NCBI RefSeq assembly: GCF_002854065.1
Contig: NZ_CP024147.1
From: Escherichia coli
Lineage (GTDB): Bacteria; Pseudomonadota; Gammaproteobacteria; Enterobacterales; Enterobacteriaceae
DNA: 64,000 nt
Reading direction: 5' to 3' (one strand)
The notes below the pieces were generated by a model. It saw nothing but the letters and a program-made list of their open reading frames with translations, was not told the origin of the DNA and searched no databases. Positions 1 to 36,341 of the stretch are shown here, one piece after another (the first letter of the stretch is position 1; each line of letters opens with the position of its first letter). Both the position numbers and the translations under genes were made by a program.

Positions 1-2271
1 GGCGTTATCACGACGCGCCATCTGGTTGCCTTCCGGCGTCCAGCTACCGGCGAAAATCCAGCAACCACAGGAGGTTGTACCGTCATCGCGCAGTTGGGCG
101 AACGAGCTAAGTTGTTGGCCTTTCTTGACGATAACCGCACCGGTTGCCGGATCGGTAATATCGGCCAGCGCCTTACCGTTGCTCTCCATCGCTACTTCTT
201 CCGACTTCGGCTCATGCGGAATGGCGTAGTTCCAGGTCATGTTCAGCACCTGGTCCGGGTTCGCGCCACCCTGTTCGGCATACATCTTGCGCAAGCGCAG
301 GAAGATACCGGAGAGGATCTCGCCGTCAGTCAGCGCAATCCCCGGGGCGTCCGCACCTTTCCAGTGCCACTGCAACCAGCGACCTGAGTTAACGATTGAA
401 CCGTTCTCTTCCGCGAAGCAGGTCGATGGCAGACGGAACACTTCGGTCTGGATCTTCGACGAGTCAACTTCGTTCAGCTCACCGTGGTTCTGCCAGAAGT
501 TAGAGGTTTCAGTGTTCAGCGGGTCGATGGTGACGAGGAACTTCAGTTTCGACAGACAACCGATCACTTTGTTTTTGTTCGGGAATGAGGCAACAGGGTT
601 AAAGCCCTGGCAGATATAGCCATTGACCTTGCCCTCTTTCATCATCTCGAAGTATTGTAGGACGTCGTAGCCTTTATCCCACTTCGGCAACCAGTCAAAG
701 CCCCAGCTATTTTCCGCCGTCGCTTTATCACCAAAGAAGGCCTTCATCATAGAGACGAAGAATTTCGGGTAGTTGCCCCAGTAGTTTACCTGGCCTTCCA
801 GCAGCGGTTTTGGCGTGTTGGCGGTAAGGTAGGTTTGCAGATCGGTCTGCTTCTCGCTTGGCAGCGTCATGTAACCTGGCAGGCTCTGCGACAGAAGGCC
901 CAGGTCCGTCAGCCCCTGAATATTGGAGTGACCGCGCAGGGCGTTAACGCCGCCGCCTGCCATCCCCATGTTGCCGAGCAGCAGCTGGATCATCGCCATC
1001 GTACGAATGTTTTGCGCACCAACGGAGTGTTGCGTCCAGCCGAGGGCATACAGGAACGAGGCAGTTTTATCGTGAGCACTGGTTTCTGCGATGTATTCGC
1101 AGACTTTCAGGAACGCGTCTTTTGGCGTACCACAGATGTTTTCAACCACATCTGGCGTGTAGCGGGAAACGTGCTGTTTCAGCAAGTTCCACACGCAGCG
1201 CGGATGTTGCAGCGTGGTATCGCGTTTGGCGAAGCCGTTTTCGTCCAGTTCGTAAGTCCAGGAGGATTTATCGTACTTGCGTTTTTCCGCGTCGTAGCCG
1301 GTGAACAGGCCATCTTCAAAGCCGTAATCCTCACGCACGATCAGGCTGGCGTTGGTATAGGCTTCGGTGTATTCGCGGTTGAATTTTTCATTGTTCAGCA
1401 GGTACAGCAATACGCCTGACAGGAAAGCAATGTCAGTACCGGAACGAATAGGGGCATAGTAGTCAGCTACCGCCGCCGTACGCGTAAAGCGAGGATCGAT
1501 CACAATCAGCTTCGCGCCATTGTGAATTTTGGCTTCCATCGCCCAGCGGAACCCGACCGGGTGAGCTTCAGCGGCGTTACCGCCCATCACCACGACGAGG
1601 TTGGCGTTCTTGATGTCGACCCAGTGGTTGGTCATCGCACCGCGACCAAATGTTGGAGCAAGACTTGCTACCGTTGGTCCGTGTCAGACACGCGCCTGGT
1701 TGTCGACCGCGAGCATACCCAGCGCGCGGGAGAATTTTTGCGTTAAATAGCCGGTTTCGTTACTCGACGCGGAAGCACACAGCATCCCGGTGGAGAGCCA
1801 GCGGTTAACAGTCACGCCTTCGGCGTTTTGCGCAATGTAGTTAGCATCGCGGTCTTCTTTCATCAGTTTGGCGATGCGATCAAACGCCTCTTCCCAACTG
1901 ATTTGCTGCCATTTATCAGAACCTGGCGCACGGTATTCCGGAAACTTCAGACGGCTTTCGGAGTGGATGAAATCCACCAGGCCAGCGCCTTTCGGACAAA
2001 GTGCACCGCGGTTGACCGGGTGATCCGGATCGCCTTCGATATGGAAGATAGATGCTTTGGCGTTTTTTGCTCCGTCACCGAGGCTGTACATCAACAGCCC
2101 ACAGCCTACGGAACAATAGGTGCAGGTATTACGGGTTTCGCGGGTGCGCAGCAGTTTATACTGCCGGGTTTCCGCGAGTGCTACGCTGGGTGCAAAACCC
2201 AGTGCCGCTGCCGTGGTGCCTGCCATACCGCCAGCGCAGATCTTAAAGAACTGCCTTCTGCTGACCTGCAT
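1..2271 (-). CDS. fdoG: Formate dehydrogenase-O major subunit (selenoprotein), partial; N-terminus at 2271, runs off window start
   Basis: N-terminal Tat motif MQVSRRQFFK; molybdopterin oxidoreductase-like sequence; in-frame TGA at 1684-1686 with the same frame staying open to position 1. Confidence 0.9.
1640..1686 (-). other. Selenocysteine UGA codon (1684-1686) plus predicted SECIS hairpin immediately 3' in the coding frame
   Basis: Frame continues ...VDNQARV-U-HGPTVASLAPTFGRG...; position matches the Sec site of FdoG/FdnG/FdhF-type enzymes; hairpin not folded computationally. Confidence 0.6.
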
Positions 2272-2464
2272 GGATTGCTCCTTGTTTCGACATTGTCACG
2301 TCCCATTTACATTCGCTTGCTGCGTGTGCAGGGAGTGGGAGTTATTTTTCTTTGCGGAAGGGGCCGCAAAGGTCCAGAATTGGCTCAATTTCCCTCCATC
2401 CAGGAAGGGTTTGTAACAGAATACCATAATGTTGGTGTGTGTGTTCTTATCTGGTTAAGAGAAA

Positions 2465-3298
2465 GTGAAAAAAACACAGCAAAAAGAAATCGAAAATGTG
2501 ACAAATATCACAGGTGTTCGTCAAATTGAGTTATGGCGGCGTGATGATTTACAACACCCACGGTTAGATGAGGTCGCGGAAGAAGTTCCCGTTGCGCTGG
2601 TCTACAACGGCATTTCGCATGTGGTGATGATGGCGTCGCCCAAAGACCTTGAGTACTTTGCGCTCGGTTTTTCGCTTTCCGAGGGGATAATAGAAAGTCC
2701 GCGCGATATCTTCGGCATGGATGTCGTTCCTTCCTGTAATGGTCTTGAAGTACAAATTGAGCTTTCCAGCCGCCGCTTTATGGGGTTGAAGGAGCGCCGC
2801 CGGGCGCTGGCGGGACGTACGGGCTGTGGCGTATGCGGCGTGGAGCAACTTAATGACATCGGAAAACCGGTGCAGCCGCTACCGTTCACCCAGACGTTTG
2901 ATCTCAACAAACTGGATGATGCATTACGTCATCTCAACGATTTTCAGCCAGTGGGGCAACTGACTGGTTGTACTCACGCCGCTGCCTGGATGTTGCCATC
3001 TGGCGAACTGGTCGGCGGGCATGAAGACGTGGGTCGCCATGTGGCGCTGGACAAACTGTTAGGCCGCCGGTCACAAGAAGGGGAAAGCTGGCAGCAAGGT
3101 GCGGTACTGGTTTCCAGTCGTGCCAGTTATGAAATGGTGCAAAAGTCGGCGATGTGCGGCGTAGAGATTTTGTTTGCGGTGTCTGCCGCGACCACGCTTG
3201 CTGTAGAAGTGGCTGAGCGCTGTAATCTGACACTGGTAGGTTTTTGTAAACCGGGTCGGGCAACGGTTTATACCCATCCGCAGCGTTTGAGCAATTAA
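2465..3298 (+). CDS. fdhD: Formate dehydrogenase accessory sulfurtransferase FdhD
   Basis: 277-aa ORF, divergent from fdoG, recognised FdhD sequence. Confidence 0.9.
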
Positions 3299-9797: not shown

Positions 9798-10196
9798 TAG
9801 GCCGGATAAGGCGCTCGTGCCGCATCCGGCAATCAATGCCTGATGCGACGCTGTCGCGTCTTATCAGGCCTACAACTATTGCCGACCTGTAGGCCGGATA
9901 AGGCACTTGTGCCGCATCCGGCAATCAATGCCTGATGCGACGCTGTTGCGTCTTATCAGGCCTACAACTGTTGCCGACCTGTAGGCCGGATAAGGCACTT
10001 GTGCCGCATCCGGCAATCAATGCCTGATGCGACGCTGTCGCGTCTTATCAGGCCTACAACTATTGCCGACCTGTAGGCCGGATAAGGCACTTGTGCCGCA
10101 TCCGGCAATCAATGCCTGATGCGATGTCGCGTCTTATCAGGCCTACAACTGTTGCCGACCTGTAGGCCGGATAAGGCACTTGTGCCGCATCCGGCA
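9798..10196. repeat. BIME/REP array: about four tandem ~100-bp units, each with two REP palindromes
   Basis: Unit gtaggccggataaggcRctYgtgccgcatccggcaatcaatgcctgatgcgacgctgtYgcgtcttatcaggcctacaactRttgccgacct repeats head-to-tail with point differences. Confidence 0.85.
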
Positions 10197-18983: not shown

Positions 18984-19070
18984 TGTAGGCCTGATAAGAC
19001 GCTATCAGCGTCGCATCAGGCATCCTGCTCAAATGCCGGATGCGGCGTAAACGCCTTATCCTGCCTACAA
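18984..19070. repeat. REP/BIME element between yiiM and cpxA
   Basis: gtaggcctgataagacgc...gcgtcgcatcaggc and gccggatgcggcgtaaacgccttatcc palindromes. Confidence 0.6.
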
Positions 19071-24044: not shown

Positions 24045-24158
24045 AAATGCCTGATTCGCTTCGCTTATCAGGCCTACGTGAATTCTGCAATTTATTGAAT
24101 TTACAAACTTTTGTAGGCCGGATAAGGCGTTCGCGCCGCATCCGGCATTGATAAAGCG
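24045..24158. repeat. REP/BIME pair between pfkA and sbp
   Basis: Two REP palindromes separated by attctgcaatttattgaatttacaa. Confidence 0.6.
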
Positions 24159-34025: not shown

Positions 34026-34334
<309 letters not shown>

Positions 34335-34348
34335 TCTCTTCCACGCAG

Positions 34349-34375
34349 AGGCGCCGCAAGGCGCCTTATTTTTTA
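34349..34375 (+). terminator. zapB rho-independent terminator
   Basis: aggcgcc-gcaa-ggcgcct then tattttttac; overlaps the stop codon of the following minus-strand ORF. Confidence 0.5.
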
Positions 34376-35089
34376 CTTCACTGTATTTTTAGCAGACAAC
34401 ATAATCTCCATCGCCTGTTGGCGATATTTATCTGCCGTATCTGGCTCCATTAATGCAATGATCCCCACAGCCCTGGGGGTGTCTTCAAGATAAACACTGA
34501 TGGTTCTTTTCTGCTGACCATCAAAATTTATCAACACATCCTGATACTTACAGGTGAAATGTTTGGCATTACAATCATGAAACTGGAAGGTTTCTTCATT
34601 GTATTGATCCTTGAGATTGTCTCGCTGCATCTTCTTTAACTCTTCCAGCGAGTCATCGGCGCTACGTCCTGCGGGCAGGCGGAAAGCAGAAATAAAGACG
34701 CTATTATCTTCACTTCTTATATCAATGGTTTTATCAGTACTAATAGAAACCGTATTCCAGTGTCGGTTTGGGACAGTCACGGAAATAGCTGCCTTCTCAA
34801 ACGTATAGTGCCACGGGGTGAACAGACGAAACGTATTGCCGACGTTGGATAAAAGCAGGACTCCCAATACCCAACAGTACCCGCGAGTAAAACTGGCGAA
34901 GTTACGCGTTTTTTTAGTGAATGTGCACAGAATACCTGACACAAGCACGGGAAGTAATAACGGCCCAAGAAGTACTGAACCGATATACTCGCCAACCATC
35001 CCAGGATCTCCAGTAAGCAAGTTACTGTGCTGAAGATGACTAAGAAAAATAGTTATTATCCATAGTATTAATAAGATAACGTATCTCAT
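34373..35089 (-). CDS. Hypothetical membrane protein, island gene 2 (238 aa; three predicted N-terminal TM helices plus ~140-aa C-terminal domain); paralog of the upstream ORF
   Basis: Long ORF in an AT-rich insert; shares motifs with 35122-35808 (KKtR..F.RG.CW..G..L, YTF, TVTVP, DPD..D.Y..E.M..MLSA). Confidence 0.6.
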   Translation of the reverse strand: MRYVILLILWIITIFLSHLQHSNLLTGDPGMVGEYIGSVLLGPLLLPVLVSGILCTFTKKTRNFASFTRGYCWVLGVLLLSNVGNTFRLFTPWHYTFEKAAISVTVPNRHWNTVSISTDKTIDIRSEDNSVFISAFRLPAGRSADDSLEELKKMQRDNLKDQYNEETFQFHDCNAKHFTCKYQDVLINFDGQQKRTISVYLEDTPRAVGIIALMEPDTADKYRQQAMEIMLSAKNTVK

Positions 35090-35121
35090 ATCAATCCATT
35101 ATTATTAACATGCACATCAGA

Positions 35122-35808
35122 TCATTGACGAGCAGAAAGCATCATTTTCATTACTTCTTCTTGATATTCGTCCAAATAATCTGGGTCGATAGCTGCGACC
35201 AGTTGTATCAAATTAGTGTTATCCAGTAGAGTCATGAAAATAACATGTCTTACTTTGCCATCACTCATTGTTTGCACTCCTTCTTGATAAGCGCAGGCAA
35301 ATCCCTGAACATCACAAACATGCATTTCTGCAGTTCCGTTTTGAGTCGCGGTAAGTTCCTCGATTGAATGCACACCGAGTTCATTTTGTGAGAAGGCAAC
35401 AATAGCTAAAATAGCATGGGCATCCCGGGTCACCAGGGTTGGTCCTTGTTTTACTATATTGGCAACCCACTGTTTGCTCGGAACCGTGACGGTGATACCT
35501 GGCTCCGGGAAAGTATAATCCCATATGCTGTGTCGTTCCCACACCGTATAGCTGCTATAGATAAGAAATAATCCCATTAACCAACAAGTGCCGCGAATAA
35601 AGCTGCGGCTGCTTCTTTTTTTTATCGTTATACAGATGATTGTGGCGATAATAAATGATAAGGCAAGTGGGTTAAAAAATACGTTAGCAAAATATAAAAT
35701 CATTTCACCCGCGTTGCCAGATAAAAGAAATTTGTAGCGGAAATGGTTAACGGCTATAAGTAATAAATATATAAATAAAAGAATAATATTCTGCATGAAT
35801 ACGTCCAT
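35122..35808 (-). CDS. Hypothetical membrane protein, island gene 1 (228 aa; same architecture as its paralog)
   Basis: Long ORF, AT-rich, paralogous to 34373-35089; start codon lies 4 nt after the rraA terminator T-run. Confidence 0.6.
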   Translation of the reverse strand: MDVFMQNIILLFIYLLLIAVNHFRYKFLLSGNAGEMILYFANVFFNPLALSFIIATIICITIKKRSSRSFIRGTCWLMGLFLIYSSYTVWERHSIWDYTFPEPGITVTVPSKQWVANIVKQGPTLVTRDAHAILAIVAFSQNELGVHSIEELTATQNGTAEMHVCDVQGFACAYQEGVQTMSDGKVRHVIFMTLLDNTNLIQLVAAIDPDYLDEYQEEVMKMMLSARQ

Positions 35809-35840
35809 GTATAAAAAAGGGGAATTTAATTCCCCTTTTA
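35809..35840 (-). terminator. rraA rho-independent terminator
   Basis: aaaagggga-atttaat-tcccctttt hairpin followed on the minus strand by a T-run. Confidence 0.45.
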
Positions 35841-35855
35841 ACGCATGGCAGATAC

Positions 35856-36341
35856 TTATTCAATATCCAGCGGATCTTCTGAAAGAATAATCCCGGTATT
35901 GTCGGCATAAAGATGGTCGCCGGAGAAGAAGGTAACACCGCCAAAATTGACGCGGACATCGCTTTCGCCAATGCCTTCGCCAGCGGCACCAACCGGAATT
36001 GCCGCCATCGCCTGGATGCCGATATCCAACTCTTCCAGGTCATCTACCTGACGCACCGCGCCGTAAATGACCAGACCTTCCCATTCATTTTGTACTGCCA
36101 GACGCGCCAGTTCAGCATCGACCAGTGCGCGACGAACAGAACCACCGCCATCGACGACAAGAACACGACCACGGCCATTCTGTTCGAGCAGATCGTACAG
36201 CAACCCGTTGTCCTCGAAACATTTTACCGTGATTATTTGTCCGCCAAACGACGCCCGTCCGCCAAAGTTGGAGAACAGCGGTTCCACGACGTTAACATCT
36301 TCTTGATAGATGTCACAAAGCTCGGAAGTATCGTATTTCAT
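35856..36341 (-). CDS. rraA: RNase E inhibitor RraA
   Basis: 161-aa [26 protein letters not shown]... Confidence 0.9.

Follow-up and report, generated by a model that had tools for sequence, protein, structure and literature searches.

Two paralogous genes 3' of rraA in Escherichia coli encode putative membrane-anchored proteins with a DcrB-like fold

We analyzed a 64,000-nucleotide stretch of Escherichia coli contig NZ_CP024147.1 (assembly GCF_002854065.1), hereafter the window, in which two tandem minus-strand genes, here called A and B, lie between the convergent genes zapB (34089–34334, plus strand) and rraA (35856–36341, minus strand). Gene B (35122–35796, 224 amino acids) follows rraA, and A (34373–35089, 238 amino acids in the list of open reading frames, ORFs) follows B after a spacer of 32 nt (35090–35121). 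From the zapB stop (34334) to the rraA stop (35856) the distance is 1,521 bp, compared with 84 bp in a K-12-like genome. The original prediction, made from the letters of the window, had described zapB and rraA as adjacent and convergent in K-12 and about 1.5 kb apart here, with two minus-strand ORFs of 238 and 228 amino acids between them. This description holds, except that the start of B is revised. The two proteins are paralogs, as had been proposed, with 30% identity over 221 amino acids (BLASTP, E = 7e-32), and the motifs F.RG.CW, YTF, (S/T)VTVP, (E/D)PD..D.Y and MLSA are common to both. The AT-richness noted earlier is also evident: the GC content is 0.425 for A and 0.397 for B compared with 0.519 for the window, and the GC content at third codon positions (GC3) is 0.45 and 0.37 compared with 0.51–0.62 in glpK, glpF, zapB, rraA, menA and hslU. 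The codon adaptation of both genes is low.

A terminator scan identified hairpins on either side of the pair. The intrinsic terminator of rraA (35810–35839, minus strand) reads AAAAGGGGAAT-TAA-ATTCCCC-TTTTTT. The zapB terminator (34348–34367, plus strand), a GC-rich hairpin with a T-run, lies 6 nt past the A stop on the opposite strand. This second hairpin resembles the single hairpin of the K-12 zapB-rraA gap, with an 87% match in inverted orientation.

The start codons of both genes required attention. The longest ORF for B (35122–35808) encodes 228 amino acids, whereas RefSeq gives a protein of 224 amino acids from the ATG at 35796, and the orthologs elsewhere start at the equivalent methionine. 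A Shine-Dalgarno GGA (35804–35806, minus strand) is found 7 nt 5' of this ATG, inside a conserved ATACA(T/A)GGA(C/T)(G/A)T context. Because of this positioning, and because the orthologs do not have the four extra codons, we take 35122–35796 as the likely true extent of B. For A, RefSeq/PGAP gives a protein of 208 amino acids from Met31, both in the window and in the RefSeq records among the loci that we read (L001, L003 and L029–L031). However, the 30 residues that this annotation omits, MRYVILLILWIITIFLSHLQHSNLLTGDPG, are conserved at the protein level in E. albertii and in far more distant genomes. A Shine-Dalgarno GGA (35097–35095) lies 5 nt upstream of the ATG of the 238-amino-acid form, and the same ..GG(G)ATTGATATG context precedes the A start in E. 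albertii. The 208-amino-acid annotation drops the first transmembrane helix and is apparently a start-site error repeated systematically across hundreds of genomes.

Neither protein has a significant match in Pfam, NCBIfam, PADLOC, PHROGs or PDB sequence profiles, consistent with the original prediction, which could assign neither to a known family. The best library matches are at noise level (YgiW, E = 0.15–0.69; INPP5B_PH, E = 0.05). None of the PADLOC-DB 2.0 defense hidden Markov models matches A or B up to E = 1, and PHROGs gives a single match at E = 0.15. The Pfam models for DcrB/DUF1795 (PF08786) and PsbP (PF01789) do not match A or B. The DUF1795 model also matches none of 26 family members, and the PsbP model matches one of them, below threshold (3.4e-3). 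UniRef carries the label 'DUF1795 domain-containing' for the E. albertii ortholog and for a member from Pseudocitrobacter cyperus (P0036).

The family is small. An exhaustive hmmsearch with a nine-sequence profile against 1.84 billion cluster representatives returned only 33 proteins, and a 26-sequence profile run against 5.8 billion proteins added no further families. The taxonomic range is drawn from these protein clusters and from contig look-ups, and indicates a family almost confined to the Enterobacteriaceae; a nine-sequence genome scan, which used one narrow peptide pattern, returned Escherichia only. In the AlphaFold database (AFDB), A0A5B0K5J4 and A0A5B0K846 (239 amino acids each, with adjacent accession numbers) match over the whole model at 28–30% identity and may be a second tandem pair of the family in one genome. 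One of these two is labeled 'DUF1705', probably through a spurious match to the membrane part.

The AlphaFold2 model of A has a mean predicted local distance difference test score (pLDDT) of 76, rising to about 85 in the C-terminal domain, and the model of B has a pLDDT of 86.7 and a predicted template modeling score (pTM) of 0.73. Both models consist of three long N-terminal helices (residues 2–26, 29–58 and 63–89 in B) followed by a beta sheet with flanking helices. The C-terminal domain is an alpha/beta/alpha sandwich that superposes significantly on several solved members of the Mog1/PsbP/DUF1795 (DcrB-like) fold. This fold is common to three families of type VI secretion system (T6SS) immunity proteins, and equally to DcrB, LpqN, PsbP, Mog1 and the Eag chaperones. 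A Foldseek search of AFDB50 returned many proteins annotated as 'DUF1795' or 'PsbP C-terminal domain', several of which carry an RDD- or DUF4190-type membrane anchor at the N terminus. The C-terminal domain is thus a new sequence family inside a known fold superfamily, and a membrane anchor joined to a PsbP-like ectodomain is a recurrent architecture. The Mog1/PsbP/DUF1795 sandwich is a binding scaffold that holds proteins, peptides or lipids in PsbP, Mog1, DcrB, LpqN, the Eag chaperones, Tsi3 and Tli, and we know of no catalytic members.

The three N-terminal transmembrane segments, basic cytoplasmic loop and C-terminal domain of about 140 amino acids that were originally described are predicted throughout the family. 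Three hydrophobic segments and a loop rich in lysine and arginine are found in all 25 full-length members of the 26 examined, the remaining one being truncated at its N terminus. The third segment is the weakest in E. coli (mean Kyte-Doolittle value 1.2–1.3, only moderately hydrophobic), but it is hydrophobic across the family. Among the 26 members the loop between helices 2 and 3 contains two to six lysine or arginine residues and essentially no aspartate or glutamate, while the loop between helices 1 and 2 contains none to two basic residues and usually one acidic residue. Based on the positive-inside rule, these charges predict an N-in, C-out topology with the C-terminal domain in the periplasm.

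Conserved residues agree with this orientation. A nearly invariant pair of cysteines is present, with exactly two cysteines in the C-terminal domain of 23 of the 26 members. In the model of A the two are seven residues apart on adjacent strands of one hairpin (171–175 and 178–189), where they probably form one disulfide. This geometry would fit an oxidizing, periplasmic location of the domain. A VP..W motif is also conserved in the family. The cytoplasmic loop together with the start of helix 3 (KK.R..S..RG.CW) is better conserved than any other stretch of the protein, which argues that the membrane part is more than an anchor. No lipobox of the kind found in DcrB-type lipoproteins is present in A or B.

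To survey E. coli we used a 2.4-kb probe across the locus, which matched 5,425 of 5,426 complete genomes and covered the insert in 658. In the remaining genomes only the flanks match, which make up 36% of the probe, and 84 bp separate zapB from rraA. A probe restricted to the insert matched 679 genomes, 657 of them with both genes and about 20 with A alone. The insert is therefore absent from about 87% of complete E. coli genomes, including K-12-like strains. The 686 places at which the insert occurs in E. coli are all chromosomal, with at most two per genome, and all six E. coli loci that were read place it between rraA and zapB. Among the carriers are strains of O157:H7, O55:H7 and O145 (at least 99% identity), and there are two more allele classes at approximately 97% and 95%; the urine isolate EcPF15 is among the listed carriers. 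Every record names the products 'hypothetical protein'.

Disrupted copies also occur. In E. coli strain 100416 (NZ_CM128593.1) an IS1B copy splits a locus that is otherwise a 100% match to the window, and in Shigella dysenteriae 1617 a protein (P0028) consists of 39% of A fused to an IS3-type transposase ORF. Several truncated protein clusters of the family exist, and B has been lost from an E. coli strain whose A allele differs by 0.4% from that of a strain with both genes. Loss of the locus in E. coli continues.

Outside E. coli, the family is consistently identified 3' of rraA. Among the loci read (L001, L003–L007, L012–L022, L026 and L028–L031), every enterobacterial homolog with readable context directly follows rraA on the same strand. 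Both genes are found in Escherichia sp. MOD1-EC7003, while only A is found in E. albertii, in E. whittamii and in a GTDB representative labeled E. coli SCPM-O-B-8794 (L016). In Escherichia sp. E1V33 (L015) A is found directly after rraA, and the sequence read ends inside A. An enterobacterium whose MenA is 94% identical to that of E. coli (L004) has a B-like and an A-like gene, followed by an IS200/RAYT-type gene and zapB. Single copies are found downstream of rraA in the Lelliottia sp. WAP21/Huaxiibacter cluster, in Enterobacter and in Atlantibacter subterraneus, the last with a metQ-like gene between. The gene on the far side is not always zapB. In Kluyvera ascorbata (L017) the single copy is followed by genes for an esterase, a major facilitator superfamily transporter and an AraC-type regulator and then by pfkA, and in a second Kluyvera-type genome (L019) the far-side neighbor of the single copy is pfkA. 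In the enterobacterium L022 (P0029) zapB does lie on the far side of a single copy, and the contig ends 153 nt upstream, before any rraA.

A short metagenomic contig (L024, at 977–1423, minus strand, and 1594–1758 and 2011–2718, plus strand) retains a 28-residue remnant of the rraA 3' end upstream of the homolog P0045, and where the remainder of rraA would lie it has a DUF4225 gene and other small membrane ORFs. The arrangement could reflect either a rearrangement or a cassette copy that moved together with the rraA 3' fragment. Two distant non-enteric homologs were also read, one located among housekeeping genes and the other beside a higBA pair.

We identified no toxin, T6SS, VgrG, PAAR, Rhs, contact-dependent inhibition (CDI), bacteriocin or integrase genes near any of the loci read, which represent at least seven genera. 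In particular, neither an effector nor an immunity array, the usual neighbors of T6SS or polymorphic-toxin immunity genes, is found at any of them. The Y1-transposase gene of IS200/RAYT type that lies between the A-like gene and zapB in L004 (9761–10123, minus strand) is the sole mobility-type gene. Searches with tblastn yielded no phage copies and no true plasmid copies; the one match in the plasmid set, a record of 4.9 Mb, is evidently a misfiled chromosome.

The divergence of the genes is consistent with long residence at this site. Between E. coli and E. albertii the synonymous divergence (dS) is 0.33 for A, 0.26 for rraA and 0.70 for menA, and between E. coli and L004 it is 1.5 for B and 1.25 for menA. 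The 20–45% protein identity observed between genera roughly fits vertical descent at a ratio of nonsynonymous to synonymous divergence (dN/dS) near 0.2–0.3. Of the features expected of a genomic island, a deviant base composition is found. However, no mobility genes or copies on mobile elements are associated with it, the borders of the insert show no direct repeats, target duplication, integrase or tRNA, and the homologous site in related species is occupied, with the gene 3' of rraA in at least seven genera. The K-12 gap is not a clean empty site but a different, diverged short spacer with one hairpin. No remnants of A or B are detectable in this gap, and none of B in the 260-bp spacer of the A-only species. 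The deviant composition is itself constant, with a GC3 of 0.25–0.50 in the homologs and 0.55–0.77 in their neighbors in every host. Examples are Atlantibacter (L005, 8001–8717; 0.25 compared with 0.64–0.72) and Enterobacter (L028, 6001–6720; 0.37 compared with 0.68–0.77). AT-richness is therefore a lasting trait of the family and gives no date for a transfer; H-NS binding and repeated allele exchange are possible reasons for its persistence.

Selection acts on both ORFs. In pairwise Nei-Gojobori comparisons within Escherichia dN/dS is 0.10–0.43 for A and 0.27–0.36 for B, well below 1, compared with 0.01–0.08 for rraA and menA. The pair is thus functional, but the purifying selection on it is five to ten times weaker than that on its neighbors. 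Variation is concentrated in the predicted periplasmic part. Among Escherichia A alleles 35% of sites in the C-terminal domain vary, compared with 8–18% in the first two transmembrane segments and the loops; in B the proportions of variable sites are 17% and 4–24%, respectively. The identity between A orthologs is 58% in the membrane part and 30% in the C-terminal domain for L004, and 56% and 39% for P0029. Although the A-only strain 2020CK-00188 encodes the same RraA and MenA proteins as K-12-like strains, its rraA gene is 2.7–3.1% from those of other E. coli.

The arrangement of rraA and B suggests how the pair is expressed. The rraA terminator ends 4 nt before the start of the longest B ORF (35808) and 16 nt before the conserved B start (35796). 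The same order of rraA stop, terminator, ATACA(T/A)GGA(C/T)(G/A)T and ATG is found in five taxa: the window (35794–35858, minus strand), L004 (7938–8003), Escherichia sp. L014 (9231–9296), Lelliottia L021 (7942–8003) and Enterobacter L028 (5932–6003). This ribosome-binding context also precedes the homolog in L022, and in the Kluyvera-type genome L019 (7816–7883) a relic of it, with a short ORF, is found approximately 120 nt upstream of the present gene. The stretch from the terminator to B is too short to hold a promoter, so that B would be transcribed only by polymerase that has passed the hairpin, and as the 32-nt spacer is too short as well, B and A most likely form one transcript. From this layout we infer that the B-A mRNA originates from polymerases that start in or upstream of rraA and read through its terminator. 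An outer stem that pairs the B Shine-Dalgarno sequence with the sequence after the rraA stop was attractive in minimum-free-energy folds. This candidate was rejected; RNAalifold found one compensatory pair only, and shuffled 5' arms pair with the Shine-Dalgarno sequence equally well or better in E. coli, L014 and L021.

In a published microarray time course of O157:H7 Sakai grown in minimal medium, both genes are induced as the culture enters stationary phase. The log2 indices of ECs4854 and ECs4855 (OI#161, cluster 2) run parallel, from about -0.5 and -0.7 at 3–5 h to +0.7 and +0.55 at 7–7.5 h, a rise of approximately 1.2 log2 units, and the step between 5 h and 5.5 h has a false discovery rate p of 0.016 for ECs4854 (PMC2241611, Additional file 2). 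RraA is likewise reported to be induced at entry into stationary phase (PMC3997798, citing Zhao et al. 2006). The stationary-phase patterns of the two ORFs and of RraA agree. The induction of RraA is reportedly sigma-S-dependent and driven by a promoter inside menA.

Considering these results together, we tentatively favor, at a little short of even confidence, the reading that A and B are membrane-tethered periplasmic binding modules that serve as non-essential envelope accessories and whose expression is coupled to rraA. A binding role is the most likely one because the members of this fold bind and none is known to be catalytic, and the proteins would be closer in kind to DcrB or to mycobacterial LpqN than to an enzyme or toxin. 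With the N terminus in the cytoplasm, three helices would cross the membrane, connected by a short conserved basic cytoplasmic loop, and the C-terminal 140–150 residues would form a periplasmic sandwich of the DcrB-like type with one probable disulfide. The fast-evolving periplasmic domain would bind a partner in the envelope or periplasm, while the better-conserved helices and loop would dock to, or signal to, a partner in the membrane. Expression would be low, coupled to rraA by read-through, and higher in stationary phase. The family would have been located directly 3' of rraA since before the enteric genera split, would have been duplicated in the Escherichia lineage, and would later have been deleted from most E. 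coli. Given the shared rraA site across genera, the matching dS and the borders without duplication, such a history of an ancestral gene, duplication and loss is more economical than a recent insertion.

Several observations weigh against the reading of A and B as rraA-coupled envelope accessories. The rraA terminator may simply stop most transcripts. Many O157-specific ORFs of cluster 2 show the same induction, which is hence unspecific, and rraA is not in the supplements of that study, of which Additional file 2 covers O157-specific ORFs only (PMC2241611). In the searchable part of the supplements of an O157:H7 shotgun proteome RraA is listed while A and B are not, although this negative is weak. 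The proteins are dispensable, as the approximately 87% of complete E. coli genomes without them and the disrupted and truncated copies attest. A gene long resident at one site would not usually keep so low a GC3. Additionally, the A alleles within E. coli are up to 6.4% apart in DNA, compared with 0.4% for rraA and 2.3% for menA, and they disagree with menA on relationships. The O157 allele of A is 3.5% from that of Escherichia sp. E1V33 and 6.1% from that of E. coli ECCNB12-2, whereas for menA the pattern is the opposite (8.7% and 2.3%, respectively). This disagreement suggests recombination or an old polymorphism at the locus, and together with the allele divergence it would fit diversifying selection or repeated exchange.

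Horizontal acquisition, which the original prediction read from the AT-richness, fares poorly in the light of these data. It would make the pair a recent island (O-island 161) that the ancestor of the O157-like lineages acquired between zapB and rraA. The GC content of 0.40–0.43 in a window of 0.52, the absence of the pair from K-12 and 87% of E. coli, and its listing as the O157-specific island OI#161 (PMC2241611) are consistent with such an event. However, the same site is occupied in E. albertii, E. whittamii, cryptic Escherichia clades, Atlantibacter, Kluyvera, Lelliottia and Enterobacter, the dS of A matches that of rraA, and low GC3 is a property of the family in every host. With no border repeats or target duplication, no clean empty site in K-12, and no true plasmid or phage copies, this reading is largely refuted, and we regard it as very improbable. 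Loss from most E. coli, the IS1 and insertion sequence fusion disruptions, the several truncated forms and the low codon adaptation could instead mark both genes as decaying relics that have no current function and are on their way to loss. This is barely tenable, as both window genes and the intact members aligned from at least seven genera have uninterrupted frames, dN/dS stays well under 1, conservation extends to the cysteine pair, the VP..W motif and the cytoplasmic loop, and transcription is regulated (PMC2241611).

The AT-richness, the allele divergence and the variability of the periplasmic domain keep a conflict-type reading alive. As orphan immunity or decoy proteins, A and B would use their periplasmic domains to capture and neutralize toxins that enter and act in the periplasm, for example lipases or muramidases of the T6SS, bacteriocins like colicin M, or CDI toxins, with tandem divergent copies widening the range. 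A binding domain that is predicted to be periplasmic and evolves about three times faster than the membrane part, tandem paralogs that are only 30% identical, presence/absence polymorphism with frequent decay, E. coli alleles that are more divergent than the flanks and conflict with the tree of menA, AT-richness in every host, and fold relatives that include T6SS immunity families all agree with this proposal. Nevertheless we consider it unlikely. No effector, VgrG, PAAR, Rhs, CDI, bacteriocin or mobility gene is found nearby in at least seven genera, apart from the transposase gene of L004, and the position behind a housekeeping gene is fixed, unlike that of known orphan immunity arrays. In addition, dN/dS is below 0.45 everywhere with no positive selection detected, there is no PADLOC, Pfam or NCBIfam match, and the membrane part and cytoplasmic loop are the best conserved, which is unexpected for a mere anchor. 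The earlier suggestion of an immunity array or other conflict-system component is thus unsupported, given a fold that is equally that of DcrB, LpqN, PsbP, Mog1 and Eag proteins and contexts that contain no toxin or secretion-system gene. A related and distinctly unlikely possibility is that the slot 3' of rraA is a chromosomally fixed, hypervariable protection locus of the Enterobacteriaceae that diversifies under pressure from phages or from toxins acting in the periplasm. An AT-rich cassette would then be kept at one address, like the O-antigen cluster, while its ectodomain diversifies, duplicates and is lost, and the three-helix part and cytoplasmic loop would couple the ectodomain to a membrane partner. 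If true, the locus would represent a new stand-alone immunity, decoy or exclusion module tied to no effector or mobile element. In a variant that is more speculative still, the link to rraA would be functional, and A and B would convey the status of the envelope to the membrane-bound RNase E/RraA system. Phage pressure could also drive diversification and repeated loss of an envelope factor that is used in DNA entry, as DcrB is by phage C1, or that blocks entry in superinfection exclusion. DcrB, which belongs to the same fold superfamily, is reportedly needed for phage C1 infection; some phage-encoded lipoproteins match weakly in structure (Foldseek E = 8e-6 to 8e-5), and the variability, loss and AT-richness are in keeping with such a role. 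However, the gene was never found in a prophage or, by tblastn, in a phage genome, PADLOC gives no match above noise and PHROGs one at E = 0.15, and the viral structural matches are generic lipoprotein domains at 10–11% identity. A phage-related role is accordingly improbable.

Elsewhere in the window, Rfam identified four tandem copies of naRNA4 (REP/BIME-type repeats) at a spacing of 92 nt (9800–10143, plus strand) and one more at 18988–19065 (minus strand). Gathering-level matches were obtained for a SECIS_3 element (1631–1689, minus strand), the ClpQY (hslVU) heat-shock promoter element (39296–39353, minus strand), the L31 ribosomal-protein leader (43965–44017, plus strand) and ES036 repeats (24070–24111, minus strand; 44997–45038, plus strand). 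The SECIS_3, ClpQY, L31 and ES036 matches are features expected in this chromosomal region. No tRNA genes were found in the window by ARAGORN.

Since the first O157:H7 genomes, A and B have been recorded as hypothetical, unnamed ORFs of O-island 161. We found no functional literature on them in the searchable literature, where the search for ECs4855 covered the supplements of PMC2241611 alone, and the DUF1795 literature is all on T6SS Eag chaperones. What is new here is the fold, the predicted topology, the start-codon corrections, the fixed linkage to rraA in the Enterobacteriaceae, the pattern of selection and the anatomy of expression. On present evidence the labels 'foreign island' and 'immunity array' no longer stand for this pair, which as of now is a tidy but ordinary accessory-gene finding. 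If the ectodomain binds a toxin, a phage component or an envelope-assembly factor, the locus would provide an example, easy to test, of an envelope accessory that varies between lineages in pathogenic E. coli.

Several known systems share the fold of the C-terminal domain. The T6SS immunity proteins Tsi3 (4luq_C), TplEi/Tli5 (5h7y) and the C-terminal domain of Tli4 (7wdk_B) have it in common with A and B. However, these proteins have signal peptides or lipoboxes and are encoded beside their effectors, whereas A and B have a three-helix anchor, no effector neighbor in the genomes read and no sequence similarity to them. The Eag chaperones (EagT6/PA0094, 1tu1; SciW, 6xrb; DUF1795) are soluble, cytoplasmic and encoded beside prePAAR effectors and vgrG, while A and B are membrane proteins whose domain is predicted to be periplasmic. 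PsbP, CyanoP and the bacterial PsbP-like proteins (2xb3, 3lyd, 3hlz) are 10–13% identical to A and B, which have no photosystem context. LpqN, Mtc28 and Apa of mycobacteria (6e5d, 4pws, 5zxa) belong to another phylum, are lipoproteins or secreted proteins, and have no sequence relationship to A and B. DcrB (YhhR), an inner-membrane lipoprotein of E. coli and Salmonella (PF08786, PDB 6e8a), is a member of the same fold superfamily, but proteins of the DcrB type are anchored by a signal peptide and lipobox cysteine, in contrast to the three hydrophobic helices and basic loop of A and B. The transmembrane-anchored DUF1795/PsbP proteins of AFDB (A0A960QH22, A0A960WU67 and A0A2W1NVT9, including RDD and DUF4190 fusions) are only 10–17% identical, have unrelated membrane domains and are not linked to rraA. 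However, they combine the same kind of helical anchor with an extracytoplasmic PsbP-like domain (Foldseek E = 1e-8 to 1e-9).

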